Position numbers and translations under genes: made by a program
Notes under the pieces: generated by a model
Database searches by the model: none
The model's input: the letters and a program-made list of their open reading frames with translations, nothing else
What the model was told of the DNA's origin: nothing
NCBI GenBank assembly: GCA_020854065.1
Contig: JADZGF010000005.1
Coordinates: 8,925 to 72,924 of the forward strand
Direction of reading: 5' to 3'
DNA length: 64,000 bases
Origin: Candidatus Nomurabacteria bacterium
Lineage (GTDB): Bacteria > Patescibacteriota > Minisyncoccia > Phycocordibacterales > SBAW01
Shown here: positions 8,763 to 27,896 of the stretch, in pieces
How the letters are laid out: the number at the start of each line of letters is the position of its first letter
Numbering within the stretch: the first letter of the stretch is position 1

Positions 8763-9401
8763 TTACAGTAAAGCCCCTGGGTTATGTCCCTGTGCCGCGA
8801 GCCACGCTGCTCCGCGCGCAGGCTTAACGACGCGAGGCTTCATAGTTATCTCTACACAAATATTGTTTTGATGTTGCTGCAAATGTTCCAGGTCGTTCAT
8901 GGTAAGGCGGCCCGCTTCTACCTCGGTAGCAATTTTTTGCGTGTAGCTGTAGTTGACGTCTTTTTGTTGCAGGTCGATGTCTACACCGGTGAAGAGTCCA
9001 AGCTTTGTCTCACGGATACCTTGCTCGGCCATCTGTATGTTGCGTGCCTGGTCAAACATAGCTATGCCAACTGGAGTAATTGGTCGCTTATGAGTTGGGT
9101 CATGGGCAAAGTTCTCATGATTCCAATGGGGGACGGTAATATCTATGACTGCACCATTTTTACAAATACGGTAGAGTTCCTTCCAGATATTTAAATAGGC
9201 CGCTGTAGTTTCGCCTAAGTGTTCAAGTGTGTGTTCAAGCTTCACCTCATCAACTGAACTATCTTCCCAAGGCCACGGTGTTTTCTCGAGGTCCCACACC
9301 ACATCAGGTTGGCACTCAGGGGCGGAGTCTACATTGATATAGCCCGGATACTTTTTAAATCCGCATCCGAGGTTGAGCAGTACGGTGGTTTGAGTACTCA
9401 T
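8763..9401 (-). CDS. class I SAM-dependent methyltransferase-like protein
   Basis: VLLNLGCGFKKYPGYINVD (motif I) and a later LEHTLEHL, consistent with Methyltransf_11/23. Confidence 0.55.
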   Translation of the reverse strand: MSTQTTVLLNLGCGFKKYPGYINVDSAPECQPDVVWDLEKTPWPWEDSSVDEVKLEHTLEHLGETTAAYLNIWKELYRICKNGAVIDITVPHWNHENFAHDPTHKRPITPVGIAMFDQARNIQMAEQGIRETKLGLFTGVDIDLQQKDVNYSYTQKIATEVEAGRLTMNDLEHLQQHQNNICVEITMKPRVVKPARGAAWLAAQGHNPGALL

Positions 9402-10792
9402 GATTGTTTTGGTTCGTCCTTAATTTGGGCGGCCCTGCGCCAATCGCTAAAGGGCTCGGCATCCTTCTTTTTATTATGCGCGAGTGTGGGAATAGGGCAG
9501 AGGGCTGGGACACTCCTTAGCTCATCGTATCCCTTTCGGGCTATGGACAGCAACTCTTGCGGGATAAACAACAATTCTTTGTGTGGGGTGCATACTCGCC
9601 AATGTTTTCGCGTGCCGAGTATGAGTTTAGAATCGACCAGTCTGTCCTTTTTATAATGCGTCGCATCATCTGCGGGGCACAAAAGGAGGGGACCAAGTTC
9701 TTTACTCAATAGTTTGTAGGTATAAAAAAGTTCATGCAGAGTCGATGCTTCATAGGCGTACTCCCCGGAAGCGAAAAACAAAAAATCGGCATCATGTGCG
9801 AGTGATACTGCCTGCTCCAAAAGATCTCCTTCCGGCGCGACTATCGTGTAGGGTACGGGGCACAATGACAGTATCTGCTCAACCTCACTTCCGTGAAGAT
9901 TCTCGGCTTCATATATAAAGGTGGCATTGATACGTACGGCGTTGTGCCTCTCGAGCAAGAGCAGCGAGTAGAGTAGTGACTTCAGTAGTTCGGGATATCC
10001 CTGGGGTGGTGCATACACAATATGGAGCGAAGGTTTTTCTGCGTCAGCGGGCAATGCGGCAGAGGCTTGTGGCACCGGCATGTCGTGGTGTTTGTAGTAC
10101 TCAGCGTTAAATACAAGGGCCCCTGATGAGTCAAGCGTGTAGGAAGAATGTCCGAAGTGTTTATGTTGATAGGCAAGTTTGCGCCCGACATCTTCGCGGC
10201 GCCACGTGTGATGTATAACTTTGGCAATCGAAGGTGGCACAATGCCGGGTATGCGAGTGTATAAAGAAGACCCGTCATTAAATGCTACTTCGTTGTCAAA
10301 TTTAAAGTTCCGGATGCCGCCGGAGCGATCGGTGCGGATAATGCGTGGGGGAAAGAATGCGCCAGGAGAGGAAACCCCAAACACGTGGTTATCAAAATGT
10401 ACGTGGTAGTAGTCAAACTGGGGAGTTTTTTCTACAAACGCAATAATGTCTTTTATCTGTTGCGCTGTGTAATGCTCGTCGCCATCAAGGATCCATATAG
10501 CATCGACTCCTTTTGCAAGAAGTGCATAGAGGACGAGTGATCGAACCTCTTTTTCATACATTGGTTGCTCATCAAGAAAGAGTGCATCAAAATGGCGACT
10601 GTTTGCCCGGAGTGCTTCTCGAGTTGTTTGGTCGTTGTCTGGGTAACCAAGTTCGGCGTACTCCTTAAACTGCACGCTTGCAGCGGCAAGAACAATATCG
10701 TATCCCTGCGCTTTAACCTCAAGCCATGGGGTGATAGTTCTCTCTAACAAGTCTGGTGCACCATAAAAACATCCCAAGACGCCGATTTTCAT
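9398..10792 (-). CDS. putative glycosyltransferase (GT-A-like, DXD motif ILDGDEH) with a C-terminal domain of unknown function
   Basis: A DGDEH acidic motif after a Rossmann-like N-terminus. Weak similarity only. Sits inside the glycosyltransferase cluster. Confidence 0.45.
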   Translation of the reverse strand: MKIGVLGCFYGAPDLLERTITPWLEVKAQGYDIVLAAASVQFKEYAELGYPDNDQTTREALRANSRHFDALFLDEQPMYEKEVRSLVLYALLAKGVDAIWILDGDEHYTAQQIKDIIAFVEKTPQFDYYHVHFDNHVFGVSSPGAFFPPRIIRTDRSGGIRNFKFDNEVAFNDGSSLYTRIPGIVPPSIAKVIHHTWRREDVGRKLAYQHKHFGHSSYTLDSSGALVFNAEYYKHHDMPVPQASAALPADAEKPSLHIVYAPPQGYPELLKSLLYSLLLLERHNAVRINATFIYEAENLHGSEVEQILSLCPVPYTIVAPEGDLLEQAVSLAHDADFLFFASGEYAYEASTLHELFYTYKLLSKELGPLLLCPADDATHYKKDRLVDSKLILGTRKHWRVCTPHKELLFIPQELLSIARKGYDELRSVPALCPIPTLAHNKKKDAEPFSDWRRAAQIKDEPKQS

Positions 10793-10869
10793 GGGGCTAT
10801 CATACTATAGAGGGCTTTGTATGGGTACAAAGGGACATTTTTTGCCTTGGCGTGGGCTATACTACAAAC

Positions 10870-11973
10870 ATGAGGTTCTTCAACTTCCTCAAATACAACA
10901 ACGCCGTACCGATCGGTCTTTTCTTGTTGTTTGGTATGGGAAGTGCTGCGCTGGCTTCTACCCCTGAGGTTCAGCAGGCGGTGTATAACACGCAAGAATC
11001 GGTGGTCAGTATCGACAACAGTTATATCGTCAATGCTGATATAGAAAATTTTGAGTATCAGCTCATGGTAACGGGCATAACCGAGGACGAAGAATTGTAT
11101 TACGTAACGTACACGTATCAGACGATTGATTTGCAACAAGAGGTTTGGCAAGAAGTTACAAAAGGAGGAACGCTTAAATTTACAAAAAAAGAATTAGAAG
11201 GTAGAGATCTTGGGCTTGAGGTAAGTAAGCAATTGGGCGAGCTTATCGCAAGCGAGATGAAGTATCTTGCCGACGTACAAAAGTATGAGCGTGCAAACGG
11301 CGAGTCCCGCAAAGTAGTTGCAACTGAGTACTCAGGACTCATCGGCCGTTTCTTCGATCCGACGCAAAAAGAATTCCCGGGGTATAAACCAGTAATTGAG
11401 CCACCGAAACCTGAAGAAGAGGAACAGACTGCTGCGGTAGCGAATGCGGTAACAGATCCTACACAACCTGTTCCTCCTGAGGAGAAGAAACCGAAAGAGA
11501 GCACGGTGTTAAGTCTCCAGGTGCTTGGCGAAAATCCGGTGCGCGTGGCGCTCGGCAGCGAATACCGCGACCTCGGCGCACTTTTAAGTGATCCAACTGA
11601 TCCATCAATAACCTACAAGGCGTTTGTAAACGGTGAGGAGAAAGTCGCTCCGATAACGGTGACCTCAAATGACGATGCGGTATTTGAAATTGAGTATCGT
11701 GCGGTTGATCAGAACGGCATAAAAGTATTTGTGCGTCGCATTGTGCTCTTCGGCGATGCTCCTGATCCAGGCACCGCAAAGACATTTGGAGGAAACCGCG
11801 ACCTACGACAGGAAGAACCACCTGCTGAAGAACCTCCAGCCGAAGAGCCACCGGCAGAGGAACCGCCCGCTGAAACTCCTCCTGCTGAAGAACCTCCCGC
11901 AGAGGAGCCACCTGCGGAAGAACCGCCTGTCGAAGAGTCGTCCACACCGCCTGCCGAAGAGCCGGCACAATAG
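10870..11973 (+). CDS. secreted protein with Ig-like (DUF5011-type) domain and C-terminal (P-A-E-E-P)n tandem repeats
   Basis: Signal peptide MRFFNFLKYNNAVPIGLFLLFGMGSAALAS. A segment LQVLGENPVRVALGSEYRDLGALLSDPTDPSITY resembles bacterial Ig-like surface domains. Eight or more EEPPA repeats precede the stop. Start chosen at ATG 10870; the upstream part of the ORF overlaps the convergent gene. Confidence 0.55.
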   Translation: MRFFNFLKYNNAVPIGLFLLFGMGSAALASTPEVQQAVYNTQESVVSIDNSYIVNADIENFEYQLMVTGITEDEELYYVTYTYQTIDLQQEVWQEVTKGGTLKFTKKELEGRDLGLEVSKQLGELIASEMKYLADVQKYERANGESRKVVATEYSGLIGRFFDPTQKEFPGYKPVIEPPKPEEEEQTAAVANAVTDPTQPVPPEEKKPKESTVLSLQVLGENPVRVALGSEYRDLGALLSDPTDPSITYKAFVNGEEKVAPITVTSNDDAVFEIEYRAVDQNGIKVFVRRIVLFGDAPDPGTAKTFGGNRDLRQEEPPAEEPPAEEPPAEEPPAETPPAEEPPAEEPPAEEPPVEESSTPPAEEPAQ

Positions 11974-11988
11974 CGGTATAGTTACACT

Positions 11989-14895
11989 ATGCGGCTTATG
12001 CCAAATCATCCGCCCCATGTTTTGCGCTACGCGGCGCTTCTAACGGGTGGAGTAATGCTCCTGGTTATGGTGGCGCTCGTAATGTCGGGTAATGTTCCCT
12101 TCGCTCCGAAATTCGTTAAAAATCTAGCAGGTACACTTGAAAGAAACCCAACCTCTCAGGCTGCGGGTATACCTTTTTATGCTGACCATTTTCCGATCTA
12201 CAATGGAGGCGACCCAAATCTGAGGCTGGTGAATGTTATCTTACCTGGTCACCCGGTACCCAATAACTGCGGACTTAATACCTGTGGAAATACAGGAAGC
12301 TGCAGCAATCCCTACATAGGACTCATTAGTATAAGCGATAGCTCCGGCACTAACGGACATGCCGCGCGCGTAAGATTCAACAATACTGTACAATACTTGC
12401 CGTCAACGGGTGTGTTTCAATCGCCATCCGGCAGTACTTTAACACTCAATTGGTCTTGTCAGGACAAGGTTATCAGGCATCAGCTTGACGCATATAATTG
12501 CAGTAACTATGTCGCCGATGGTGTCTGGTACTTCGACAGCGCTGTCGTAACGGGCCCTAGTGGCACCTTGTACAGCGGAACCAACAGGATCGGAAGCGTG
12601 CAAGTCCCTTTTAGTGGGAGTGTGGGCCAAACATTTAACTATACGTTGACGTGTCAAAGAAAAACCAACTCGTGGAGTGCCAGTGTTTCAGCTAGAATAA
12701 TGCCCCCTGCTCCTACTCTTAGTATTACGGGCCAAGTCGGTGCTTCTTCACCGGTAAGCGGTACGGTAAACATGACAGTGGGGCAGTCGGTGCTCATTAC
12801 AGGCACCTTTTCCGCTGCTTCAGGAGATTCCTTAACGGCCACTGCACTCAACGACTCTTCAAACAACGCGCTTCCTGGTGTGTCCAACACAACTAATACT
12901 TCACCAAAGACCTACACTTTTACTCCAACGACGGCGGGCACGTATGTTTTCTACCCAGCAGTTAGAACGACCTTGCATCCAACGTGGAATAATCATGGCA
13001 GTGCACTTACGGTACAAGTGGCCGCCGCTCCTTCAGGGTTCACCCTCACAGTCGACTCAAACGGCTCCTCAGGCGTTGCTATTGGCGGTACTTCAGGCTA
13101 CACCGGTACCACTAACTACACTAAGGTGGGTATCGCAAACGGGACGTCGGTTCAGCTTATCGCTCCTGCTACTACAGACACTGCCTACTTCTCTGGTTGG
13201 AACAACTGTAATTCAGGCAGTGGCACCACATGTACTGTCATCGTGAACTCCAGTAAGACGGTGACGGCAAACTTCGGCACTGGAGGTTACACACTCACCG
13301 TCAACACCTCCGGCGCGTCAGGGATATCCATAAGCGGTTCTCCGACACTTACTGGCGGTACTACTAACTACGTCCGCTCAGGTATTCCTGGCGGAAGTGT
13401 CATTGTCCTCACAGCACCTTCGACTTCGGGTACCGCCACCTTCTCCTCCTGGAGCGGCTGTACTTCGGCAAGTGGGGTCACATGCAACATTACAATGACG
13501 GGCGGGAATAAAACGGTAACGGCAAGCTATACCGCAACCGACCTTTGCCCATCTCTCAGCGGCACACAAACCTCATACCCATCAGGTTCGAGCCCGGCTA
13601 ACTCATGCACCTGTCCTAGTGGCTACACGTATAACAGTGTCTCCAACACGTGTGTTGCGCCGGCGACTGATCTCTGTCCATCACTTGCGGGAACACAAAC
13701 GTCATATCCGTCAGGTTCAAGTCCAGCAAACTCCTGCACCTGCCCCAGTGGGTATACGTACGACAGCGGTTCTAACGCTTGTGTTGCTCCGGACCTCTGC
13801 CCATCACTTGCAGGAACACAGACCTCATATCCATCAGGTTCAAGTCCAGTAAACTCCTGCACCTGCCCAAGTGGGTATACGTACAACAGTGGCTCCAACG
13901 CTTGTGTTGTCGCGAGCGACTCGTGTACGACCATGTATCCAAGTTATTACGGTCCTGTTGTTGTGACGGGTACTACTGCAGGGACTGTGTATGGTAGTGG
14001 TCCGTACCATTTTATCTCTACCACTGCCAAAGCGGCAGTACATGCTGGTATTATCTCTGTCGGACAGACTGCTACTATTATGCGCACAAGCGCTGGTACA
14101 GTAAGTTCTTTCACTGGCTCTACACAAAATGGAATCACTTCCTTTACGACTGGGTCCTCTGCGTGTGGTGTAACACTCTCTAACGCGGCGCCATCAATAC
14201 CTACCTTGACTCTTGCTTCGACGCAGAGTGCTGCCGAGGGTGGGTCAACGGGTATTTTTACTGTTACTGCAAACCAGACTTCAAGCAGCAATATTGCCGT
14301 TAACTACACTGTTACAGGCGGCACTGCCACCGAAGGTGTCGATTACACTTCGCTTTCGGGCTCAGTTACTCTTCCGGCGTACGAGACGAGCGTAACGATA
14401 CTGGTGAGTGCCATTAACGACACTGAGTACGAGGGTACTGAGACAATAGGATTGTCATTGGATTCTTCTTCCAGTTATGACCGTGGGAGTCCGTATACTG
14501 CGACCATGAACCTTATCGACAACGAAACAGCAGCTTCGCTCCCAACATTCTCCACCTGTGCAGACACCGGGACTCCTCCTACCTGCTCGTTGGCACTACT
14601 TTCAGGTCTTACTTCAGTTAATTGGATTAGACAGGGTCTTCCTGTAACTGTGTCCTGGAATGTAGACGGACTCGTCACTGGTTCTCCGGGTAATACTTGT
14701 ACGATACGATCAATTCCTTCTTCAGCATTCACCACGCGAAGCTGGCCACAGACCGGGAGTACGTGGGTGGGCACTGCAACGTCAAATAACATTATACAGA
14801 CTACGATCTTTACCCTCACCTGCACAGCGCCAAATGGTATAGAAACTACAACTGCACGAACGGTGCGCGTGGTGCCTCGCTTCAATGAGATCTAG
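11989..14895 (+). CDS. large multi-domain surface protein: N-terminal TM anchor, two InlB B-repeat-like domains, three Cys-rich roughly 40 aa repeats, Calx-beta-like domain
   Basis: TM helix at residues roughly 15-35. Two roughly 80 aa repeats of the form YTLTV..SG..G...SG......GT.NY.......G..V.L.A......F..W..C.SG..C....N..KTVTA.F (InlB B-repeat pattern). Three DLCPSLxGTQTSYPSGSSPxNSCTCPSGYTY(N/D)SxSNxCV repeats. A Calx-beta-like stretch VNYTVTGGTATEGVDYTSLSGSVTLPAYETSVTILVSAINDTEYEGTETIGLSL. Confidence 0.75.
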   Translation: MRLMPNHPPHVLRYAALLTGGVMLLVMVALVMSGNVPFAPKFVKNLAGTLERNPTSQAAGIPFYADHFPIYNGGDPNLRLVNVILPGHPVPNNCGLNTCGNTGSCSNPYIGLISISDSSGTNGHAARVRFNNTVQYLPSTGVFQSPSGSTLTLNWSCQDKVIRHQLDAYNCSNYVADGVWYFDSAVVTGPSGTLYSGTNRIGSVQVPFSGSVGQTFNYTLTCQRKTNSWSASVSARIMPPAPTLSITGQVGASSPVSGTVNMTVGQSVLITGTFSAASGDSLTATALNDSSNNALPGVSNTTNTSPKTYTFTPTTAGTYVFYPAVRTTLHPTWNNHGSALTVQVAAAPSGFTLTVDSNGSSGVAIGGTSGYTGTTNYTKVGIANGTSVQLIAPATTDTAYFSGWNNCNSGSGTTCTVIVNSSKTVTANFGTGGYTLTVNTSGASGISISGSPTLTGGTTNYVRSGIPGGSVIVLTAPSTSGTATFSSWSGCTSASGVTCNITMTGGNKTVTASYTATDLCPSLSGTQTSYPSGSSPANSCTCPSGYTYNSVSNTCVAPATDLCPSLAGTQTSYPSGSSPANSCTCPSGYTYDSGSNACVAPDLCPSLAGTQTSYPSGSSPVNSCTCPSGYTYNSGSNACVVASDSCTTMYPSYYGPVVVTGTTAGTVYGSGPYHFISTTAKAAVHAGIISVGQTATIMRTSAGTVSSFTGSTQNGITSFTTGSSACGVTLSNAAPSIPTLTLASTQSAAEGGSTGIFTVTANQTSSSNIAVNYTVTGGTATEGVDYTSLSGSVTLPAYETSVTILVSAINDTEYEGTETIGLSLDSSSSYDRGSPYTATMNLIDNETAASLPTFSTCADTGTPPTCSLALLSGLTSVNWIRQGLPVTVSWNVDGLVTGSPGNTCTIRSIPSSAFTTRSWPQTGSTWVGTATSNNIIQTTIFTLTCTAPNGIETTTARTVRVVPRFNEI

Positions 14896-14922
14896 GTAAA
14901 AATCATGCGCTAGAATAAGCGT

Positions 14923-15939
14923 ATGAGTGTTAAGGTTGCAATTAACGGCTTTGGACGTATCGGTCGCGCGTTCGTGCGCGCAGCGGTGCATGATCCGAAG
15001 ATCGAACTTGTTGCGATCAATGACCTGGGTGAGATTGATAATCTTGCGTATCTTCTTCAGTACGATTCGGTGTACCGGCGCTTTCCCGCACAAATTAAAG
15101 TAGAGGGTGGCGATCTGGTGATTGGCGCAAAGCCAGTTAAGTTTTTAAGCGTCAAAGATCCTGCACAATTGCCGTGGGGTCAGCTTGGTGTTGATGTAGT
15201 GATTGAATCAACAGGCGTGTTTGATAGTTTTGAAAAATCGCAGGCACATATAACAGCTGGCGCGAAGCGTGTGGTTATTACCGCTCCAGTTAAAGACGAG
15301 TTACAAAACGCCGCAACGGTGCTGGTCGGAGTGAATGAGGATAAGCTCCAAAATGTTACCGTTACTTCCAATGCGTCGTGCACCACCAACTCAGCATCTC
15401 CTCTGATTGCGATTCTTGATGAATCGATTGGGATTGAGAAGGCGTTACTTAACACCGTGCACGCATACACCGCAACACAGTCGTTAGTGGATGCGCCGGT
15501 TAAAGGGTCAGATAAACGACGTGGTCGTGCTGCAGCGCAAAACATTGTGCCCTCATCCACAGGCGCTGCAGTTGCGGTGACAAAAGCATATCCAAATCTT
15601 TCAGGACTTTTTGATGGTGTCTCGGTACGGGTACCTACAGTTTCTGGTTCGCTCGTTGATATTACGTTCGTCGCGAAACGTGCAACGACTGCTGAGGAAG
15701 TAAACGACATACTGCGCAAAGCAGCGCTCGAACCGCGCTGGCAGGGGATTTTTGCTGCAAGTGACGAGCCGCTTGTTTCTGGTGACATTATCGGCACTGA
15801 ACATGCATCAATTGCGGATCTTGAGATGACACGGGTGGTTGGAGGTACCCTCGTTAAGGTAATGGCGTGGTACGACAACGAAATGGGGTATGCGCATACA
15901 CTTCTTCGACACGTACAATTGCTCGGTGCGCATATATAA
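14923..15939 (+). CDS. gap: type I glyceraldehyde-3-phosphate dehydrogenase
   Basis: VAINGFGRIGR NAD-binding motif, catalytic ASCTTN, and full-length (338 aa) colinearity with GapA. Confidence 0.9.
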   Translation: MSVKVAINGFGRIGRAFVRAAVHDPKIELVAINDLGEIDNLAYLLQYDSVYRRFPAQIKVEGGDLVIGAKPVKFLSVKDPAQLPWGQLGVDVVIESTGVFDSFEKSQAHITAGAKRVVITAPVKDELQNAATVLVGVNEDKLQNVTVTSNASCTTNSASPLIAILDESIGIEKALLNTVHAYTATQSLVDAPVKGSDKRRGRAAAQNIVPSSTGAAVAVTKAYPNLSGLFDGVSVRVPTVSGSLVDITFVAKRATTAEEVNDILRKAALEPRWQGIFAASDEPLVSGDIIGTEHASIADLEMTRVVGGTLVKVMAWYDNEMGYAHTLLRHVQLLGAHI

Positions 15940-15946
15940 TAGAAGA

Positions 15947-16384
15947 GTGAAAATCTTCATTGCATCTGATCATGCAGGGTTTGAACTCAAAGAAACTCTT
16001 GGGCATTACTTGCGGATGAAAGGCCGCGAGGTGGAAGATCTTGGTCCTGCTGAATTTAATCCGGAGGACGACTATCCACATACCATTGCGCCGTTGGCTA
16101 AAAAAGTTGCAAAGACAAAAGGCGCCATGGGTATTGCGATTGGAGGTTCAGGACAAGGCGAGGCGATGGAATGTAATCGTGTGAAAGGAGTACGCGCTGC
16201 TGTCTTCTATGGTGGCTCCCATGAGATCCTTAAACTCTCACGCCAGCACAATAGCGCTAATGTACTCTCGCTTGGCGCGCGATTTCTTTCTCCAAAAGAA
16301 GCGATACAGGCAGTGGAGCTGTGGCTTTCAACTCCGTTTAGTCACGAAGAGCGCCATGCGCGCCGTATTAAAGAACTGGGATGA
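15947..16384 (+). CDS. rpiB: ribose-5-phosphate isomerase B (RpiB/LacAB family)
   Basis: KIFIASDHAGFELKE...GIAIGGSGQGEAMECNRVKGVRAA, which is RpiB family. A GTG start at 15947 is chosen just after the gap stop. The ORF track begins at 15890, overlapping gap. Confidence 0.8.
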   Translation: MKIFIASDHAGFELKETLGHYLRMKGREVEDLGPAEFNPEDDYPHTIAPLAKKVAKTKGAMGIAIGGSGQGEAMECNRVKGVRAAVFYGGSHEILKLSRQHNSANVLSLGARFLSPKEAIQAVELWLSTPFSHEERHARRIKELG

Positions 16385-17016
16385 TAAAAATAATTCCCGC
16401 CATTTTACCGAAGACGTTTGACGAACTCGTTTCGGGACTCGAGCGTTTAAGTAGTGTCTCAAATGAAATACAAATAGATTTGGTAGGAAGGAATGTGCTC
16501 AAGGATCAAGAGATGCCACACTGGCAGGAATTTGAGTTCGAAATTGATGTCATGCTTCCTGAGCCGCACACCGAATTGGATAGCATATTAGCACTTGGTC
16601 CTTCCCGTATTGTTATCCATGCAGCAAACCAGCACGCCAAAGAAGCGCTCACACAACTACAGAGTATGCGCGACGGAAATTACCCGACTCTTGTCGGTAT
16701 AGCGCTCTTACCCACCGCAGAGCCTGAGGTGCTTGATGAGTACGCAGGACTCTATGATTTCATACAAGTCATGGGTATTGATGAGGTTGGCGCACAAGGC
16801 AGGCCCTTTAATCCCAAAGCTATTGAGTTGGTCTCACGTCTCCGCGCGCTTCATCCTCAGGTACTTATACAGGTTGATGGTCATGCGGCTGGAAATGAAA
16901 AAGAGTTGGTTGCAGCGGGTGCTGAACGCTTAGTTATTGGCTCTGCAATATTGAATGCTGATAATCCAAAAGCAGCACTCCATGAAGCGCTCGCTCGTGC
17001 AAATGCCGGAGTATAA
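16381..17016 (+). CDS. ribulose-phosphate 3-epimerase-like TIM-barrel protein (divergent)
   Basis: The N-terminus KIIPAILPKTFDEL resembles the Rpe start (IAPSILSADF). The fold and length fit, and the context is pentose-phosphate. The canonical His/Asp metal-ligand motif (HxDxMDG) is not evident. Confidence 0.45.
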   Translation: MIKIIPAILPKTFDELVSGLERLSSVSNEIQIDLVGRNVLKDQEMPHWQEFEFEIDVMLPEPHTELDSILALGPSRIVIHAANQHAKEALTQLQSMRDGNYPTLVGIALLPTAEPEVLDEYAGLYDFIQVMGIDEVGAQGRPFNPKAIELVSRLRALHPQVLIQVDGHAAGNEKELVAAGAERLVIGSAILNADNPKAALHEALARANAGV

Positions 17017-17024
17017 TAGAGCAA

Positions 17025-17909
17025 ATGGCTCTGAGCGATACGCAGGTTAATAGCCTTGAACTGCGCGCGCGCGACATCCGCGCCACTATTATTGAGATGC
17101 TCACCGCTGCAGGCTCCGGGCACACCGCGGGACCTCTCGGCATGGCGGATATCTTTGCGGCGCTCTATTTTCACATCCTCTCGCACGATCCCGCACATCC
17201 TGAATGGGATTTGCGCGATCGTCTTATCCTCTCCAATGGCCACATCACGCCGGTACGCTATGCTGCGATGGCACATGCAGGCTATTTCCCCGTTGAAGAG
17301 TGTTTAACGCTTCGTAAGTTTGGGTCGCGTCTGCAAGGTCACCCGGAGCGTCAAAAGCTCCCTGGGGTAGAGACTACTTCAGGTCCTCTCGGTTCGGGAC
17401 TCGGTCAGGCTGCCGGATATGCATATGCGGCTCGGATGGACGGAAAGAAATTCCGCACCTTTTGTTTAATGAGCGACGGGGAACAAGATACCGGCAACAT
17501 CTGGGAGTCTGCGATGTTTGCGGGGAATAATCGACTGAGCAACCTCACCGCTATTATTGATCGCAACAATATTCAGATAAACGGAATGACGGAGAATGTT
17601 ATGCCACTTGAGAACATGCGTGCAAAATACGAAGCGTTTAACTGGCATGTACTTGAGATTGATGGACATAACATGCGTGCCATTGTTGATGCGTGTGATG
17701 AAGCAGCGGCAATTTATGAGCGTCCAACCGTAATCATTGCACACACCATCCCTGGCAGAGGAGTACGTGAAATAGAGTTTGACTATCGCTGGCATGGCGT
17801 GCCGCCGGGCAAAGGTCCAACTGACAAAGTTCCGGCAGACAAACAGGCAGAAGTGTTCTTAAAAGAACTCCGGACTTTGAAAGGCAAAATTCAAAGCGAA
17901 CATGAATAG
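17025..17909 (+). CDS. tktA: transketolase, N-terminal (TPP-binding) subunit
   Basis: GSGHTAGPLGMADIFAALYF......LSNGH matches the transketolase PP-domain motifs. 294 aa, typical of split Tkt. Confidence 0.9.
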   Translation: MALSDTQVNSLELRARDIRATIIEMLTAAGSGHTAGPLGMADIFAALYFHILSHDPAHPEWDLRDRLILSNGHITPVRYAAMAHAGYFPVEECLTLRKFGSRLQGHPERQKLPGVETTSGPLGSGLGQAAGYAYAARMDGKKFRTFCLMSDGEQDTGNIWESAMFAGNNRLSNLTAIIDRNNIQINGMTENVMPLENMRAKYEAFNWHVLEIDGHNMRAIVDACDEAAAIYERPTVIIAHTIPGRGVREIEFDYRWHGVPPGKGPTDKVPADKQAEVFLKELRTLKGKIQSEHE

Positions 17910-17916
17910 CTTTTTT

Positions 17917-18468
17917 ATGCGCAAATCGCGAGGTTTTACCCTTATCGAACTCCTGGTTGTTATTGCCATCATCGGCATACTTGCCTCTATTGTGATGGTT
18001 AGTCTCAATGGTGCGCGTGCTAAAGGGCGAGATGCTCGGCGACTTGCTGACTTGAAGTCATTTGAATTTGCACTCAATCTCTACTATGAGGCGAACGAAC
18101 ACTATCCATATACCAACTGCTCTGGCTCTAACAGCTGGGCCAGTTTTGACAGTCCTACCTATTCGCCCAATTTGGTATGTGATACGCCAGGTGGAGCAGG
18201 AGTTACGCTTTCACAAAAGATGAGCCCATACACCGATCCCTTAAAAGACCCGGGAGGTGCAACTGGTGATGCGGGTTATTTGTATATCAACCAAGGAGGA
18301 CGATTCGATTATTGCGTCTTGGTATGGCGCACCCCTGAAAACCTCAACAATTTCCCGCCTGAGACGATACCCGCATCTCAGTGCACTGCATGGAATAGTT
18401 CCGGAGTGTGCACCAGTGGCACTAATGCGTTGTATATAGGGAAAGGTATCTATCAAAACGGCTGTTAA
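17917..18468 (+). CDS. type IV pilin / pseudopilin (prepilin with class III signal peptide)
   Basis: MRKSRG|FTLIELLVVIAIIGILASIV: a short basic leader ending in Gly, Phe at +1, Glu at +5. A C-terminal Cys pair (CTAWNSSGVCTSG...NGC) is consistent with a disulfide-bonded D-region. The start overlaps the tktA stop by a few nt. Confidence 0.8.
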   Translation: MRKSRGFTLIELLVVIAIIGILASIVMVSLNGARAKGRDARRLADLKSFEFALNLYYEANEHYPYTNCSGSNSWASFDSPTYSPNLVCDTPGGAGVTLSQKMSPYTDPLKDPGGATGDAGYLYINQGGRFDYCVLVWRTPENLNNFPPETIPASQCTAWNSSGVCTSGTNALYIGKGIYQNGC

Positions 18469-18478
18469 TCTTGTATAT

Positions 18479-19462
18479 ATGCTCCACGCTACTTTTTCAC
18501 AAGATGTATTTGAGAAGCCCGATATGTCCGCAACACGTGATGGGTTTGGCAAGGCACTCTTAGAGCTGGGTGAGTCTAATAAAGATGTAGTGGTGGTCTG
18601 TGCCGACTTGGCTGAGAGTACGCGCGTATTAGCGTTTAAAGAAAAGTATCCTGAGCGGTATGTCGAAGCGGGTGTTGCCGAGCAAAATATGGCGACCGTA
18701 GCAAGTGGTCTCGCAAATTACGGAAAAGTCCCTTTTATTACTTCATATGCTGCATTTTCACCCGGGAGAAATAATGAGCAGATCCGTACCACTATTTCAC
18801 TCAATTATGTGCCGGTTAAAATTGTTGGTGCGCACGCTGGTATTTCAGTAGGACCTGACGGCGCAACACACCAAGCGCTTGAAGATATGGCGCTGATGCG
18901 TGTGCAGCCTAATATGTTGGTGCTTTCTCCATGTGATAGCGAAGAGGCGCGTAAAGCGACACTTGCTGCAGCAACGCATCCAGGACCCGTGTATATCCGT
19001 CTGACACGAGAAAAGTCTCCGGTCATGACTGCAACGGAAACTCCCTTTACACTCGGTGCCGCAAACGTGGCGTGGGAGAGCGACCATGCGCCTGAAGTGG
19101 TGGTGTTTGCGACTGGGCCTCTGCTCTACCATGCACTCCTTGCTGCGAAAGAGTTGGAACATGCGGTAGCAACGATGGTGGTGAATGTGCACACAATCAA
19201 ACCGCTTGATAGGGCAGTTATCGATTTTGCAAAACAAGCCGGGGCCGTCGTTACGGTGGAAGAACATCAGGTGGCTGGAGGGTTAGGAAGTGCAGTTGCT
19301 GAACTTTTGGCACAAGAGCATCCCGTACCAATTGAGTTTATCGGTGTGAAAGACCAGTTTGGGCAGTCCGGCGAGCCGTCTGAATTGTATGAGCACTACG
19401 GCATGGCGCCGAAGCACATTGTGGAGGCAATTAAAAAAGCAGAGAGTCGCAAAGTGAAGTAA
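18479..19462 (+). CDS. tktB: transketolase, C-terminal (Pyr + C-terminal domain) subunit
   Basis: YVEAGVAEQNMATVASGLA...GPDGATHQALEDMALMR are pyrimidine-binding-domain motifs of transketolase. Confidence 0.9.
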   Translation: MLHATFSQDVFEKPDMSATRDGFGKALLELGESNKDVVVVCADLAESTRVLAFKEKYPERYVEAGVAEQNMATVASGLANYGKVPFITSYAAFSPGRNNEQIRTTISLNYVPVKIVGAHAGISVGPDGATHQALEDMALMRVQPNMLVLSPCDSEEARKATLAAATHPGPVYIRLTREKSPVMTATETPFTLGAANVAWESDHAPEVVVFATGPLLYHALLAAKELEHAVATMVVNVHTIKPLDRAVIDFAKQAGAVVTVEEHQVAGGLGSAVAELLAQEHPVPIEFIGVKDQFGQSGEPSELYEHYGMAPKHIVEAIKKAESRKVK

Positions 19463-19467
19463 ACACT

Positions 19468-20001
19468 ATGCTGCATACGACGCATCGGTTTATAAAAAGG
19501 AGATTTGCAAAGCTCGGCATCGAGGGAGGCGTCATGGCGATATGCGCACTCATTCTCTTTAGTGGCGTTGTATATAAATACGGTGAGTACTCACAGAGTC
19601 TGCAGTGTTTAACGCATCTTTTGTATGTCGAAGCACGGGGCATGGATGAACAAGCGCAGTATGATGTGGCGCACTCGGTGATGAATCGTGTCGAAGCAAA
19701 CCGTCCGTATTTTGGTGGCAACACGGTGTGCGGTGTGGTGTATTACGTGCAAGATGGTGTACGTCAGTATTCGGGAGTGTCCCGTAACTTTGGTATGCCG
19801 GAGGATATGGAATCCTGGAAACGGTCAATGGCAATTGCGAGTGATGTGTTGACTGGCAGGGTGGAGCCTGTTGGCGCAATGCGGGATGCGCTCTATTATC
19901 TCAATCCTAAATATTCAAGCTCACGAAGTATTGTGTGGTTCAGAGCAAATCTCCGTGAGGTGGGATCCTCCGGTGCCCATATTTTTTACACTGACAGATA
20001 A
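19468..20001 (+). CDS. cell wall hydrolase, SleB/CwlJ (Hydrolase_2) family
   Basis: LYVEARGMDEQAQYDVAHSVMNRV matches the Hydrolase_2 core (AEARGE....VA.VILNRV). Confidence 0.55.
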   Translation: MLHTTHRFIKRRFAKLGIEGGVMAICALILFSGVVYKYGEYSQSLQCLTHLLYVEARGMDEQAQYDVAHSVMNRVEANRPYFGGNTVCGVVYYVQDGVRQYSGVSRNFGMPEDMESWKRSMAIASDVLTGRVEPVGAMRDALYYLNPKYSSSRSIVWFRANLREVGSSGAHIFYTDR

Positions 20002-20004
20002 AGG

Positions 20005-20994
20005 TTAGAGCGACTCGACGCTCCACGGTGCTGGGGGATTTGCTAAATTCTTTTCCAATTGCTCGCGCGTAAGGAGTCCTTTTTGTGCACCAATACCCTG
20101 CAAGACCGATGATGCGTTAACTGAGCCCCAACGCAACGCTTCTTCAAGTGTCTTCCCGAGGCTTAATGCAACCGTGGTGGTTGAGGCGAGTGCGTCTCCT
20201 GCGCCCGTTACCTCATACGGCTGCTTTGGATCGGGATAGCGGGGAAGATGAAACATTGCTCCTTGTTCGTCTCGTGCGTAGCATCCGTTGGTGCCGTCGG
20301 TAATGACGACGGTCTTGGGACCGAGTGCGTGCATAGCGTCAAGGAGCTGTTTAAATTCTTGTCCTGCGGGTAATCCTAAAATACGTTCAGCCTCCTCTTT
20401 GTTGCAGAAAAATAGATCGCTTCTTTTATACACCTCTGCAAGTGCTTCTTTACCCATCTTCATCTGGTATGTCCCCGGCTGGAAGGCGAGTTTCGTGTCT
20501 GGATACTTCTCAAGCATCTGCATCAAAGCGCGGTGATAGGGAAGCGAGGAGTCTCCGAGCGAGGAGAGATAGAGCCATTGTGGTTTCTCGCGCAAAGAGG
20601 GCACGGCATAATCGAACGTTTCGTGCTTAACCAATATAGTGCGTTGCGATTCATACCACAGTACGTAGTGGTAGTTGGTAAATTTGCCTGGCTGCGTTTC
20701 CATATACGCAACATCGACGCCTTCACGGCGCAACACTTCAATACATTGTGCACCGTATGCATCTTTGCCGACATATGCACGCAACCCTGAAGACACCCCA
20801 AGACGTGCTGCAGAAACTGCGGCATTTGCAGCGTTTCCCACTGCAGGCACGATCTCGTGGAGCTCATACGGGATCTTATCTCCCCACTTCATAGAGATCT
20901 CGCAATCTTCGTTATCAAGTCGGCAATGCACCCTCGCATCTTTAAGTCTGATAAAGGCGTCAGTCACTATGTCACCAACTGCAAAGAAGTTCAT
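20005..20994 (-). CDS. PfkB-family carbohydrate kinase (ribokinase/phosphofructokinase-B-like)
   Basis: A Gly-rich N-terminal motif and the C-terminal anion-hole motif EVTGAGDAL (DTxGAGD). 329 aa. Confidence 0.75.
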   Translation of the reverse strand: MNFFAVGDIVTDAFIRLKDARVHCRLDNEDCEISMKWGDKIPYELHEIVPAVGNAANAAVSAARLGVSSGLRAYVGKDAYGAQCIEVLRREGVDVAYMETQPGKFTNYHYVLWYESQRTILVKHETFDYAVPSLREKPQWLYLSSLGDSSLPYHRALMQMLEKYPDTKLAFQPGTYQMKMGKEALAEVYKRSDLFFCNKEEAERILGLPAGQEFKQLLDAMHALGPKTVVITDGTNGCYARDEQGAMFHLPRYPDPKQPYEVTGAGDALASTTTVALSLGKTLEEALRWGSVNASSVLQGIGAQKGLLTREQLEKNLANPPAPWSVESL

Positions 20995-21020
20995 GTTGTT
21001 TTCTATTATATAGTAAGTAC

Positions 21021-21887
21021 ATGAAGCCTCTCCGCGAGGTGCTCAAGGAGTACAGAAATGCCACCAAGGCGTTGGCGCATTTTAACTTCTCCGATTCTAA
21101 TCAACTCAAAGCAATTGCTGAGGCGAGTAAAGAAACAGGATTACCGGTACTCGCAGCGCTCTCGGAAGGTGAACGTGAGCATTTTCCTCTGGTGCATGCG
21201 CGCGCATTGATTGATGCGTACCAGCGTGAAGGGGTGCAGATGTACTTAAGTGCTGATCACACGTATTCACTTGAAAAAGCGAAAGCGGCTATTAATGCAG
21301 GAGTAGATGCGATTGTGGTTGATGGGGCAGAACTTAGTTTTGCCGACAATGAAAAGTTGCTTATGCAAGTCGTTGCATACGCGCACAGCAAAAAGCGCTT
21401 CCGCGGATACCACGACACCATTATTGAAGGAGAGTTGGGGTATATTGGTAAATCTTCGTCTTTACACGATTCACTCCCGGAGGGGGTGAGTGAAGCAAAC
21501 CTCACTACGCCCGAGGATGCGGCACGTTTGGTTAAAGAAACAGGTATCGATGCGCTTGCGCCAGCGGTGGGGAATGTACACGGCATGTTGAAGAATGCAA
21601 AAGAGCCACGATTGCACCCGGATCGGATGAAAGAGATTGCAAAAGCGGCGGGGGTTCCACTCGTATTGCATGGTGCTTCCGGAAACAGCGAAGAGGACAT
21701 TAAGGCTTGTATTGCGGTAGGTGTCTCAATTGTTCATATCAATACCGAGCTCCGGGTGCTCTATCGAGATTCACTCCGTGATTCACTAAAAGGAGAGGAA
21801 ACAACGCCGTATAAGTTTTTGACCCCGGCAGTCGATGCTATGCGCGAGTACCTTATCCACAGGGTGCGGTTATGTGCAGGTCTCTAG
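21021..21887 (+). CDS. fba: class II fructose-bisphosphate aldolase family protein
   Basis: EGELG, AIGNVHGM-like AVGNVHGM and LVLHGASG motifs of class II FBA/tagatose-bisphosphate aldolase. Confidence 0.8.
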   Translation: MKPLREVLKEYRNATKALAHFNFSDSNQLKAIAEASKETGLPVLAALSEGEREHFPLVHARALIDAYQREGVQMYLSADHTYSLEKAKAAINAGVDAIVVDGAELSFADNEKLLMQVVAYAHSKKRFRGYHDTIIEGELGYIGKSSSLHDSLPEGVSEANLTTPEDAARLVKETGIDALAPAVGNVHGMLKNAKEPRLHPDRMKEIAKAAGVPLVLHGASGNSEEDIKACIAVGVSIVHINTELRVLYRDSLRDSLKGEETTPYKFLTPAVDAMREYLIHRVRLCAGL

Positions 21888-22346: not shown

Positions 22347-24587
22347 ATGGAGTTTTTTCCAAAACATAAGGGTCGTTTTATCGGCGCAAGCGTTGCTGCG
22401 GTGTATCTTCTTTTAATCGGTGCCGCATTTATCGGGAATGATTCATTGGCGCAGTTTGCGAACGTCTCTCCCGGTAGTCAGACAGCACTGTCGATCTGCG
22501 ACATTCCTGGTGTGGGTTGTGGAGATGGCATTATCTACACGAACGACCTGAAGGTAACCATAGTTTCTTGGGCACTCCCGCCATATGGTGGGAGTGGAGA
22601 ATTGTATGTAAAGACCCATGGTTATACGTCTTATACGGGGGTTAACGCGCTTTGTGTGTATAAAAATCTCACGACAGGCGTCGGGAGGACCGCGAAGAGT
22701 GGTGCTAAAGGAGAGGCTAGAATTAAAGATTTCGGTCCAATTAATGGCACTACACAAGTAAAGATTACCTGCACCAACTACTACGCTACGTACTCCTCTT
22801 CCGATTCGACCAAAATAACCCTTAAAAATGCGCCAGACATTACGTTCCAGGCGGACCCAACAGAGCTTACCTACAGCGGCGCTCCAGTCACGAGTAACAT
22901 TACGTGGAAGGTAGGGAACGATTACAAATGTCGACTGACGGGTCCTGGTGTTTCTATAAGTAAGACAGAGGCGGAGTGCCAAAATAGTACGGTAACTGCT
23001 GTGCCGTTTAGTAGCCCAGGTTCTTATACGTACGATCTTGAGTATGTTCCATATTCTGACAAAGACGGAAATGATGTATGGGCTACAATCCAGAGTGTAA
23101 CAGTTGATGTCTTGCCACCGGCCGACCTCTGTCCATCGCTTGCAGGTACACAGACCTCATATCCATCAGGTTCAAGTCCTGCAAACTCCTGCACCTGCCC
23201 CAGTGGGTATACGTACGACAGCGGTTCTAACGCTTGTGTTGCTCTGGACCTCTGCCCATCACTTGCAGGTACACAGACTTCGTATCCTTCTGGTTCGAGT
23301 CCTACAAACTCTTGTACGTGCCCCTCAACTTCGACCTACAACAGCTCAACGAATAGCTGTGCAGCCGCCACTGACCTTTGCCCGTCCCTCGGGGGCACAC
23401 AAACCTCATATCCATCAGGTTCAAGTCCTGCAAACTCTTGTACGTGCCCCGCGACATATACCTACAATAGTGGTACCAACAGATGCACAGCTCCTGTTGC
23501 CGCTGATCTCTGTCCATCACTTGCAGGCACACAGACTTCGTATCCTTCTGGTTCGAACCCACCTAATTCATGCACATGCCCTGGAGACTATATCAGCGCC
23601 ACTAATAGATGCATGGCTCCTGTAACGGGAACGCCAACGTTGAACATTACAGGCAACGGGCAGCAAAATACAGTAACTGTCACTCCAGGGACGCCGGTTA
23701 CTGTTGTTGGAACTTTTGTGGCTGCTTCCGGTGACTCTTTGGTAGCTACAGCTCTTAATGACAACGCAAGTAATCCACTTCCTGGCGTGCCAAACAGCAC
23801 TGCAACATCGCCTAAGACATATGTCTTTACGCCAACAGCAGTCGGTAGTTACGTATTTTATCCAGCGGCGAGGACTTCGGCATATCCATCATGGAACAAT
23901 TACGGCAAAGCGTTGGTCGTAAACGTAATACCTGCTAGCGTCTTTACCTGCACAGGCGCTGTTCCTTCAAACGCCACACTTTGTACTGCAGATGATACTG
24001 GTTTGACTTCCAATACCGCACGAACACTCACTTCTTCCTGCAGCATACCTAGGGGGAGTGCGCCAAAATGCCAATACACGTGCCAGTCGGGCTACACCAT
24101 ACAAGGCAGCACGTGTGAGCCAAACGCTACATGCTCAGGGGCACATCAGCTCGGTACGCCACCTAACTGCACCTGTGAAGTTGGATACATCATGCAGTAT
24201 GGAAGTTGTGTTGCTGTAGCTTGCCCGGGTGCGCATGAGGTTAACTATCCGGCATGTACCTGTGGGTCCGGCTACACTCGTGATGCCGGAAGTGGTCAAT
24301 GTGTTATGCAACCAGCGCTTGAGCTTCAAGTAAACGGAGCAGATGCAGCTCGGGTTCGTGCGGGGAGTGGGGTAGAGATTATATGGAATGCAACTGGAGT
24401 TCAGGCTGGATCCTGCACCGTACGCACTTCGGCTGGTACGACAATCTCAAGTGGAGTCAACAGCGGTTCTAGTGAGTACACTGTTGCGGGGCAGACAATC
24501 TTCCGCCTCAGCTGCCTTAATGATGCTGGTGGGGTAGTAACGGATGAAGCGGTCGTCAATATCATCCCTACCTTTATAGAGTCCTAG
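22347..24587 (+). CDS. large surface protein, paralog of 11989..14895 (TM anchor, four Cys-rich roughly 40 aa repeats, shared Ig-like domain, C-terminal Cys-rich modules)
   Basis: N-terminal TM helix. Four DLCPSL(A/G)GTQTSYPSGS.P.NSCTCP repeats. The domain TPGTPVTVVGTFVAASGDSLVATALNDNASNPLPGV...YVFYPAARTS is homologous to TVGQSVLITGTFSAASGDSLTATALNDSSNNALPGV...YVFYPAVRTT in the 968 aa protein. Confidence 0.75.
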   Translation: MEFFPKHKGRFIGASVAAVYLLLIGAAFIGNDSLAQFANVSPGSQTALSICDIPGVGCGDGIIYTNDLKVTIVSWALPPYGGSGELYVKTHGYTSYTGVNALCVYKNLTTGVGRTAKSGAKGEARIKDFGPINGTTQVKITCTNYYATYSSSDSTKITLKNAPDITFQADPTELTYSGAPVTSNITWKVGNDYKCRLTGPGVSISKTEAECQNSTVTAVPFSSPGSYTYDLEYVPYSDKDGNDVWATIQSVTVDVLPPADLCPSLAGTQTSYPSGSSPANSCTCPSGYTYDSGSNACVALDLCPSLAGTQTSYPSGSSPTNSCTCPSTSTYNSSTNSCAAATDLCPSLGGTQTSYPSGSSPANSCTCPATYTYNSGTNRCTAPVAADLCPSLAGTQTSYPSGSNPPNSCTCPGDYISATNRCMAPVTGTPTLNITGNGQQNTVTVTPGTPVTVVGTFVAASGDSLVATALNDNASNPLPGVPNSTATSPKTYVFTPTAVGSYVFYPAARTSAYPSWNNYGKALVVNVIPASVFTCTGAVPSNATLCTADDTGLTSNTARTLTSSCSIPRGSAPKCQYTCQSGYTIQGSTCEPNATCSGAHQLGTPPNCTCEVGYIMQYGSCVAVACPGAHEVNYPACTCGSGYTRDAGSGQCVMQPALELQVNGADAARVRAGSGVEIIWNATGVQAGSCTVRTSAGTTISSGVNSGSSEYTVAGQTIFRLSCLNDAGGVVTDEAVVNIIPTFIES

Positions 24588-26996: not shown

Positions 26997-27896
26997 TTGG
27001 CTTCTACGAAGCTACCCATGGACGATTTGCAAAAATACAAAGAAAACCCAAAAACTGCCTATATGGTGGAGACGTTGCAGTACCTTACCAACGAGTCTGA
27101 TCGTGCAGCACTCATCACGCAGATGGATGAGATTCTCAAAGCAGAAGAGGGGAGCGATGAACTCCCGAACGAAGCTATTTTAGAAGTCCGTGCCGGTGTG
27201 GGTGGGCAAGAAGCTGCCCTCTTTGCTGAAGAGTTGGCAAACATGTACCAGGCATATGTGGTGGCGCAGGGGTGGAGTGTCCGCACGCTCTCTGAGGCAA
27301 AAACTGATCTTGGGGGGTATAAAGAGGCGGTATTTGAAATTCGGGGGAAGGGAGTGTATGAAAAATTGCGGTATGAGACAGGGGTACATCGCATCCAGCG
27401 TGTTCCTGCAACTGAAAAGAGTGGTCGTGTGCACACGTCCACTGCATCGGTTGCAATCTTGCCGATCCGTAAGAAGCACACCATTGTTATAAATCCCGCT
27501 GATATTGAGTGGGAGTTTTCGCGTGCAGGGGGTGCCGGTGGCCAAAACGTGAATAAGGTTGAGACTGCTGCGCGGGTGATACACAAACCAACGGGTCTTG
27601 ATGCCCGCTCGCAAGCAGAGCGTTCGCAAAACGCCAACCGCGAGCGCGCCATGGCTGTCCTTATGGCCAGACTTGAGCAGCTTGAGGAGGAGAAAGAGGC
27701 TCAAAAATATGCTGCGCATCGTGCATCCCAAATTGGTACCGCGGATCGCTCTGAGAAGATTAGAACCTATAACATCCTGCAGGATCGCGTAACCGACCAT
27801 CGCATCAAGCAGGACTGGCATAATCTTCCTAAAATTTTTGCAGGTTCGCTTGACCCTATTATTGATGCCCTACTCTCGTATACAGCGACTGAGTAA
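26997..27896 (+). CDS. prfA: peptide chain release factor 1 (short N-terminal domain)
   Basis: GGQ motif ([14 protein letters not shown]), a PAT tripeptide ([14 protein letters not shown], which is RF1-type rather than the SPF of RF2), and [13 protein letters not shown]. Confidence 0.85.

Follow-up and report, generated by a model that had tools for sequence, protein, structure and literature searches.

Type IV pili are the main known organelles of host attachment and motility in Patescibacteria. The nearest behavioral analogues of the locus described here are the variable pilA locus of Pseudomonas aeruginosa and surface-antigen loci that recombine between housekeeping flanks; the pneumococcal capsule locus lies between dexB and aliA, and O-antigen loci lie between galF and gnd. 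At the P. aeruginosa locus, as Kus et al. reportedly described in 2004, pilA allele groups and accessory genes share one conserved position, bounded by pilB on one side and a tRNA gene on the other. Diversity of PilA has also been noted (bioRxiv 10.64898/2026.03.17.712343). Closer to the organism considered here, a conserved non-oxidative pentose-phosphate cluster and type IV pili as core features have been described in Parcubacteria (PMC4508563), clusters of pilin and pilBCDMT genes, with multiple genes carrying pilin signal peptides, in Paceibacteria family UBA5633 (PMC9763046) and two pilus systems with 12 predicted pilins at four loci, including an orphan, in the saccharibacterium Nanosynbacter lyticus TM7x (PMC11623550). 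Here, we analyze a 64-kb stretch of Candidatus Nomurabacteria contig JADZGF010000005.1 (the window, by which we mean the whole stretch), in which an array of pentose-phosphate genes has a type IV prepilin gene between tktN and tktC, each of which encodes one half of a split transketolase.

The first-pass annotation of this DNA knew of no description of such an arrangement, and we likewise found no account of pilins nested in a transketolase or pentose-phosphate operon in the searchable literature on the candidate phyla radiation (CPR), Parcubacteria and Paceibacteria. The arrangement is real, is conserved in a clade and has apparently not been described before. Its new element is the address, a split-enzyme junction in a core metabolic operon, together with the capture of a coupled start codon. 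Taking all the evidence together, we think it fairly probable that the gene is a genuine pilin in a promiscuous, pilin-favoring, cassette-exchanging operon slot, from which it is expressed via the operon; a regulatory or metabolic link of pili to the pentose-phosphate pathway is less likely.

A prepilin gene between the halves of a split transketolase

The locus consists of the following features, which, like all genes of the array, are on the + strand:

17025–17909 (+): tktN, the thiamine-diphosphate-binding half of transketolase (PF00456, E 1e-54; NF004559 positions 11–270)
17902–17909 (+): 8-nt overlap ATGAATAG, with the pilin ATG inside the last tktN codons (GAA CAT GAA TAG); putative coupling site
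17902–18468 (+): type IV prepilin gene, 188 aa; the alternative start at 17917 gives 183 aa
18479–19462 (+): tktC, the pyrimidine-binding and C-terminal half (PF02779, E 1e-40; PF02780, E 2e-24; NF004559 positions 308–623)

Because the two halves map to these separate segments of NF004559, a 627-position transketolase model, they represent a true split, as the first-pass annotation had proposed, and its place is the PP/Pyr linker; the two polypeptides jointly span the PP, Pyr and C-terminal domains. The closest TktN relatives, at 70–80% identity, come from Paceibacterota metagenome-assembled genomes (labeled Adlerbacteria, Kaiserbacteria and similar), which places the organism in the Patescibacteria (CPR).

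One explanation to weigh at the outset is that the arrangement is an artefact of assembly and that the pilin came to stand between the tkt halves through a chimeric contig. We found nothing that speaks for it. The tktN–pilin–tktC order, with the same 8-nt overlap, recurs in the six other assemblies that we checked across NCBI, ENA and Logan, which derive from different samples and pipelines. The NCBI contig L081 has this order and is only 92.5% identical to the window at the nucleotide level over 7.2 kb, so it belongs to a different lineage. ENA contigs L082 and L083, from at least two samples, share the order, and their pilin, P0009, is found on 13 contigs. It is present again in Logan contigs L085, L089, L090 and L091, and for the last three we had predicted it from the pilin N-termini (MNK..., the footprint of the ATGAATAA overlap), correctly in every case. 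Since independent assemblies repeat the gene order, we reject misassembly, which the first-pass annotation had named among the outcomes that would overturn its claim, and we regard an artefact as vanishingly improbable.

That annotation was right that the pilin ATG overlaps the tktN stop, provided the start is placed at 17902, which gives the leader MNSFFMRKSRG; the leader it quoted, MRKSRG, belongs to a second ATG at 17917, 7 nt past the tktN stop. We favor 17902 because the overlap ATG is the sole available pilin start in seven relatives (L085, L018, L028, L082, L089, L090 and L091). The N-termini that it yields include MNKRGFTLIE in L085, MNKFKKKGFTIIE in L018, MNKHYSRGFTL in L028 and MNNYSSYKARGFTL in L082. 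For annotation purposes, the existing gene call P0001 (183 aa) uses the downstream ATG, and this comparison favors the upstream one.

The same overlap serves more than pilins. It begins the pilin in L018, L028, L081–L083, L085 and L089–L091, other cargo genes in L008, L036, L037 and L074, and tktC itself in L015, L020, L062, L079 and L080. Relatives with no gene starting there mostly have CAC-GAA or CAT-CAA as the last tktN codons, which destroys the ATG, and in L004, L010 and L063 the ATG is present though unused. On the other side of the pilin, tktC starts 10 nt past the pilin stop in the window, and its ATG lies 1–10 nt after that stop in the relatives with a readable pilin/tktC junction.

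A promoter and terminator scan of 9300–21200 found no such site at the tktN, pilin and tktC junctions, and promoter-like sites were fewer than in shuffled sequence. The layout is that of an operon, with one strand, minimal spacing and no consensus promoter or terminator site at the junctions. With no space for a promoter or terminator and a start within the tktN codons, the pilin would be transcribed with the operon and is most likely translated by coupling to tktN. Hence, we infer co-transcription and termination–reinitiation coupling in the order tktN, pilin, tktC. The gap–rpiB–rpe–tktN–pilin–tktC array of the first-pass annotation stands, in that it leaves no room for a separate pilin promoter or terminator, and its proposal of co-transcription is in line with the spacing and conservation.

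The array as a whole comprises seven co-directional genes (14923–20001) with spacings of −8 to +10 nt, and Pfam searches bore out every gene assignment. In addition to the genes above, it contains:

14923–15939 (+): gap, glyceraldehyde-3-phosphate dehydrogenase (PF00044, E 1e-36; PF02800, E 5e-51), the first conserved gene of the array
15947–16384 (+): rpiB, ribose-5-phosphate isomerase B (PF02502, E 5e-42), with a probable GTG start
16381–17016 (+): rpe-like gene, a divergent member of the ribulose-phosphate 3-epimerase family (PF00834, E 1.5e-13, above the Pfam cut-off)
19468–20001 (+): cell-wall hydrolase (PF07486, E 1e-13), 5 nt after tktC and the last gene of the array

The start of gap lies 27 nt from the preceding ORF, which encodes a 968-aa surface protein. 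The start of rpiB is most likely the GTG at 15947, following the gene call in the 92%-identical contig L081, and its end overlaps the start of the rpe-like gene by 4 nt; the latter falls below the NCBIfam rpe equivalog cut-off. In L081, too, tktC is followed by the cell-wall hydrolase gene, and in L091 this gene is found a short way downstream of tktC.

Identity of the inserted gene

The first-pass annotation had called the ORF between the tkt halves a complete prepilin, and profile searches agree. Its N-methylation domain scores 40.7 bits against PF07963 (cut-off 21.2) and 36.5 bits against TIGR02532 (cut-off 16.3), a prepilin motif is present, and a motif scan of the window returned this gene as the sole ORF with such a motif. 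Three segments can be distinguished:

17902–17934 (+): class III signal peptide leader MNSFFMRKSRG as read from the sequence, short and basic, with Gly at −1
17935–18000 (+): hydrophobic alpha1-N segment FTLIELLVVIAIIGILASIVMV, with Glu at +5
18001–18468 (+): variable part, comprising the rest of the alpha1 helix and the globular head domain, with six Cys; swapped in relatives

The predicted prepilin peptidase cut falls before the Phe at 17935 (MNSFFMRKSRG|FTLIELL), and the leader Gly is followed by FTLIELLVVIAIIGILA, with its Glu at +5. Across an alignment of 87 homologs, F7, T8, L9 and E11 (numbered from the 17917 start) do not vary at all and G6 hardly varies, and Cys133, Cys156, Cys165 and Cys183 are kept in 84–87 of the 87; a C-terminal disulfide loop is plausible. 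An AlphaFold2 model built with the homolog alignment (pLDDT 93.7) has a 52-residue helix (residues 9–60) followed by a five-stranded beta sheet, so that the predicted fold is the pilin lollipop, a long alpha1 helix on an antiparallel beta sheet.

N-methylation signals of this kind are also carried by other substrates of prepilin peptidase, and the gene could instead encode a secretion or competence pseudopilin, or a surface protein that has the signal and nothing else of a pilin. Consistent with this alternative, the hits of the family profile to solved type IV pilins and to GspG (E 1e-16 to 1e-9) cover residues 4–68 only, that is, alpha1, so that sequence similarity to known pilins is limited to the N-terminal ~65 residues; whole-model Foldseek matches are weak (E 0.07–0.4), and the best are GspG/EpsG pseudopilins. 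Even so, all ten top Foldseek matches in the PDB are pilins or pseudopilins (EpsG/GspG and Clostridioides difficile PilA1), and their low scores overall (E 0.07–0.6, TM 0.3–0.55) mean that the head domain is divergent. Against a pseudopilin, the protein scores 43.9 bits on the GspG equivalog TIGR01710 (cut-off 88.85 bits), matching only residues 5–66, and 21.1 bits on the competence pilin ComGC model NF040999 (cut-off 75 bits), and it likewise stays below the ComGE cut-off. Moreover, these bacteria lack an outer membrane and a secretin-type type II secretion system, as is well established (PMC7143001), and the model has the canonical long helix and beta sheet. We consider a non-pilus substrate very improbable.

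Hence, the product of 17902–18468 is, by its sequence features, a genuine type IV pilin-family protein, which may be a major or a minor pilin; it scores far below the PilA equivalog cut-offs. The first-pass annotation went further and spoke of the major pilin, a label that our analysis does not support. Among the 50 larger ORFs of the window scanned against Pfam, none is PilB, PilC, PilD, PilM or PilT, which makes this pilin an orphan within the window. The pilus machinery that uses it would be encoded elsewhere in the genome.

Cargo of the operon junctions and replacement of the pilin

We mapped every junction of the operon in the 80 closest species-level genomes, calling two genes adjacent if the gap between them was <200 bp; the tktN–tktC counts refer to the 76 genomes that have both halves:

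gap–rpiB junction: adjacent in 38, pilin in 3, other insert in 13
rpiB–rpe junction: adjacent in 43, pilin in 11, other insert in 4
rpe–tktN junction: adjacent in 42, pilin in 7, other insert in 14
tktN–tktC junction: adjacent in 39, pilin in 6, other insert in 31

As to the synteny that the first-pass annotation wanted examined, the order seen here holds in the six assemblies described above, and among the 76 genomes the slot is pilin-bearing in 6, closed in 39 and otherwise filled in 31. The 50 ORFs found between tktN and tktC, typed by Pfam, include N_methyl proteins (6), PCC-domain proteins (6), four-helix bundles of the 23S_rRNA_IVP family (3), CBS (2) and PsbP_2 (2), and further cargo comprises a Gp49/HTH toxin–antitoxin pair, a MazG-like protein and an IS200-type transposase. 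Of the 80 ORFs in the other slots, 22 are N_methyl proteins, and the next families have 2 members each. Of the 130 inserted ORFs in the whole operon, 28 are N_methyl proteins and 8 belong to PCC, the family next in rank. Over all junctions together, pilins are thus the leading cargo, though far from the sole one. In an unbiased count, 88 inserted ORFs lie on the strand of the operon and 19 on the other.

Pilins are also concentrated here relative to the surroundings, with 31 in 353 kb of operon span versus 8 in 541 kb of flanks, an approximately six-fold difference in density (binomial p 4e-7). Counted by locus, a pilin lies inside the operon in 22 of 80 and in the longer flanks in 7 of 80.

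Such enrichment bears on the idea that pili and the pentose-phosphate pathway are functionally coupled, in which the pilus takes up host DNA or nucleosides, ribose enters glycolysis through RpiB, Rpe and transketolase, and selection has favored co-regulation. In its favor, pilins are enriched in the operon versus its flanks and are the top cargo across slot types (level with PCC proteins in the tktN|tktC slot), and genes for a MazG-like nucleotide pyrophosphohydrolase occupy the same operon slot in L076 and L087. Type IV pili together with ComEC and DprA belong to the Parcubacteria core, for which DNA uptake has been proposed (PMC4508563, PMC7143001), and Saccharibacteria are naturally competent (PMC10187176). 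On the other hand, toxin–antitoxin, IS200-type transposase, CBS, PCC and four-helix-bundle cargo has no such logic, approximately half of the relatives have no insert between the tkt halves, close pilin homologs sit by ftsH, near an integrase or in a pilin pair near rpsB–tsf, and the protein is far under the ComGC cut-off (21 versus 75 bits). Because about half of the relatives have adjacent halves, the slot holds unrelated genes and close homologs occur elsewhere, the specific tie between pili and the pentose-phosphate pathway that the first-pass annotation drew is weakened, and we judge functional coupling unlikely. The gene neighborhood here should not be taken as a functional linkage of the two.

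Several recurrent inserts deserve separate mention. PCC/DUF296 proteins (PF03479) in the tktN|tktC slot of L019, L024, L026, L030, L057 and L073 are as frequent there as pilins (6 of 50), and two more lie in other operon junctions. In L054 (1–12439), L003 (1–8340) and L051 (1–12879), three to five pilin genes are interspersed among those of the operon: L054 has five, in an order that includes gap–pilin–rpiB–pilin–rpe–pilin–pilin–tktN, and L003 has four and also carries a frameshifted pilin copy at ~5444–5891. Small single-pass membrane proteins (60–95 aa) are encoded directly upstream of pilins in many relatives, inside and outside the operon (L031:5039–5296, L048:4610–4855, L075:4488–4733, L087:3718–3999, L086:2205–2624 and ~20 more), and not in the window. 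They carry a motif approximating GKLVSWGLVS..QAEYVL followed by a transmembrane helix, with longer FLxEMxxRR versions in L003, L008 and L011; together with the pilin, they resemble a two-gene pilin cassette, and they have no Pfam match among the typed inserts. In a Yanofskybacteria-like clade, the tktN|tktC slot repeatedly holds the gene for a small Cys/His-rich membrane protein, most copies of which end in ...CGDCGRCK (L002:6983–7270, L056:7940–8296, L068:7722–8015, L072:6954–7301 and L078:6559–6807), again with no Pfam match among the typed inserts.

Relationships among the pilins in the slot do not follow those of their flanks. Full-length relatives of the window pilin (59–69% identity) occupy the same slot in L082, L085, L089, L090 and L091, and other homologs (53–62% identity) are located elsewhere: between an amidohydrolase gene and ftsH in L084, in a region with an integrase in L086, as one of a divergent pair of pilin genes near rpsB–tsf in L088 and in the gap–rpiB junction of the same operon in L087, which has a MazG-like gene in its tkt slot. 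With the tkt-slot pilins of L003, L008, L018, L028 and L043, by contrast, the window pilin has nothing but the N-terminal region in common. A single orthologous pilin lineage in the slot was considered and rejected, as the head domains of these five are only weakly related to that of the window.

Among L091, L018 and L028, TktN is 92–94% identical and TktC 85–86%, and the pilins align only in part (78–112 aa, mainly the conserved N-terminal region) at 42–64% identity. Conversely, the L091 pilin is 63% identical to that of the window over its full length with TktN at only 80%, and the L028 and L008 pilins share 61% identity with TktN at 78%. In nucleotide identity profiles of L091 versus L018 and L018 versus L028, identity runs at 80–90% in tktN and ~70% in the first ~130 nt of the pilin, falls to ~35% over the remaining ~400 nt and recovers within ~60 nt of tktC. 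Pairwise identities and profiles alike have the marks of a variable locus, namely cargo/flank incongruence and sharp identity breaks at the cargo. This incongruence, with the collapse of identity inside the pilin, therefore indicates allele or cassette replacement of the pilin head domain between conserved tkt flanks and not divergence in situ.

Comparison with L081 brings out one tract in the same region:

~17750–18420 (no strand): high-identity tract versus L081, 97–100% over the 3′ end of tktN and the greater part of the pilin; flanks 85–92%

Synonymous divergence (dS) from L081 is 0.105 in the pilin, 0.386 in tktN and 0.382 in tktC. Over 13917–21100, the two sequences form a mosaic in which tracts of 97–100% identity (~16840–17070, 17750–18420, 19170–19470 and 20590–20890) alternate with stretches of 84–92%, which suggests frequent homologous recombination among related lineages.

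Alternatively, the pilin could be a neutral and transient insertion, a recent selfish or hitch-hiking gene with no maintained role at this position. The slot is promiscuous and admits transposases and toxin–antitoxin modules, and on a neighbor-joining (NJ) tree of TktN plus TktC the pilin state is patchy, scattered among lineages with adjacent halves. Yet the same pilin family, slot and overlapping start have been retained despite divergence to 59–69% identity, and tight spacing is kept on both sides of the pilin. The ratio of nonsynonymous to synonymous divergence (dN/dS) versus L081 is 0.17 (0.02–0.06 for the enzymes), and the pilin is under purifying selection. Its GC content (0.48) is ordinary next to that of its neighbors (0.47–0.52), so composition holds no anomaly; a recent foreign origin on compositional grounds was rejected for the same reason. 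We rate neutral insertion as improbable.

How such a slot might work can be outlined as follows. Operon junctions across Paceibacteria would act as landing slots for small accessory genes, pilins commonest among them. The pilin would ride on operon transcription, with its translation presumably coupled to tktN through the ATGA-type overlap at which tktC itself starts in some relatives. With tktN and tktC as fixed flanks, the head domain would be exchanged among lineages, probably by homologous recombination with the tkt halves as arms, a route made plausible by the natural competence of which Patescibacteria can be capable (PMC10187176). The pay-off might be that a diversifying surface subunit is expressed constitutively, with no promoter of its own, from a fixed place in the chromosome.

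A number of points weigh against this picture of an expressed and exchanged slot cargo. The enrichment figures overstate the number of events because related genomes were treated as independent; independent pilin events probably number nearer 8–10, the enrichment control consists only of a 6-kb flank on each side of the tktN match, and the enrichment could itself reflect a functional link. Co-transcription and coupling are deduced from spacing and conservation only, and an internal promoter within tktN is possible because the promoter consensus in this phylum is poorly known. As mosaic identity to L081 also occurs outside the pilin, the high-identity pilin tract is no specific proof of exchange. 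Finally, the NJ tree carries no support values and does not decide between gain and loss.

A bolder proposal, which we put forward tentatively and hold to be somewhat unlikely, is that the split-tkt junction and the other gap/pentose-phosphate junctions form a dedicated expression-and-exchange platform for pilin cassettes in Paceibacteria. If so, transcription, a start codon that is already coupled and arms of homology for natural transformation would all come from the essential and highly conserved enzyme halves. Types of host-attachment pilin could then be swapped between lineages, often as a cassette of a small single-pass membrane protein and a pilin, and the operon of these ultrasmall episymbionts would be a housekeeping-borne counterpart of loci for antigenic or serotype switching.

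Both head-domain replacement between close relatives and the rank of pilins as the commonest operon cargo are additions to what the first-pass annotation contained. Pilin diversity probably bears on host range, and with tktN and tktC as anchors, pilin alleles could be retrieved from metagenomes and compared. More broadly, streamlined, promoter-poor genomes may express accessory surface genes from the junctions of core operons by way of an existing coupled start codon.

Other features of the window and comparison with known systems

Elsewhere in the window, we noted several further features. Large predicted surface proteins are encoded on either side of the sugar-metabolism genes, at 11989–14895 (+) and 22347–24587 (+); each has a ~40-aa Cys-rich module (DLCPSLAGTQTSYPSGSSPxNSCTCPSGYTYxSGSNxCVAP) in several copies, and the two have another similar segment in common. 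A single 2282-aa ORF at 56196–63044 (+) carries all RpoB and then all RpoC domains, an apparent rpoB–rpoC fusion, and one ORF at 47181–48080 (+) combines a NusB domain (residues 7–136) with a NUDIX hydrolase domain (163–283). At 548–1654 (+), a 368-aa RCC1-repeat protein (PF00415, PF25390) is encoded beside sulfotransferase, methyltransferase and glycosyltransferase genes (1661–10792). The translation genes include a shortened peptide-chain release factor of 299 aa at 26997–27896 (+), whose PCRF match begins at profile position 61, and a short EF-Ts of 149 aa at 29616–30065 (+); a search upstream of the release-factor gene turned up no programmed-frameshift motif. Scanned against Rfam, the window yielded one tRNA only, with no riboswitch or leader.

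Set beside the described systems, the locus most resembles the P. aeruginosa pilA locus in behavior: both have a fixed address, conserved flanks, a conserved pilin N-terminus and unrelated heads in close relatives, and both occasionally pair the pilin with an accessory gene, here the small membrane protein of many relatives. They differ in that the flanks here are the halves of a split metabolic enzyme and not pilus genes or a tRNA gene, the window pilin begins within the gene before it and apparently lacks a separate promoter, and the slot also takes non-pilin cargo. Moreover, the P. aeruginosa locus is that of the major pilin, whereas the window gene is assigned to the pilin family only.

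Within the Patescibacteria, the pili of TM7x belong to the same superphylum, are built from lollipop-fold pilins and have some pilin genes away from the machinery; unlike the gene described here, those pilins, the orphan aside, are encoded in pilus loci, and nesting in a metabolic operon has not been reported for them. The UBA5633 clusters come from the same class of bacteria but adjoin machinery genes, whereas the window pilin stands alone, with no PilB, PilC, PilD, PilM or PilT among the ORFs scanned over 64 kb. The transketolase itself is split at the PP/Pyr linker, like those of archaea, many Firmicutes and Patescibacteria. Adjacent, tightly coupled halves occur in 39 of 76 relatives, whereas the window and approximately half of the relatives have one or more foreign genes between them.

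Capsule and O-antigen loci differ in cargo, which there is a multi-gene biosynthetic locus and here one small gene, with recombination as its presumed means of exchange. What they have in common with the tkt slot is a hypervariable surface determinant between conserved, potential homology arms and a phylogeny of the cargo that is incongruent with that of its flanks.

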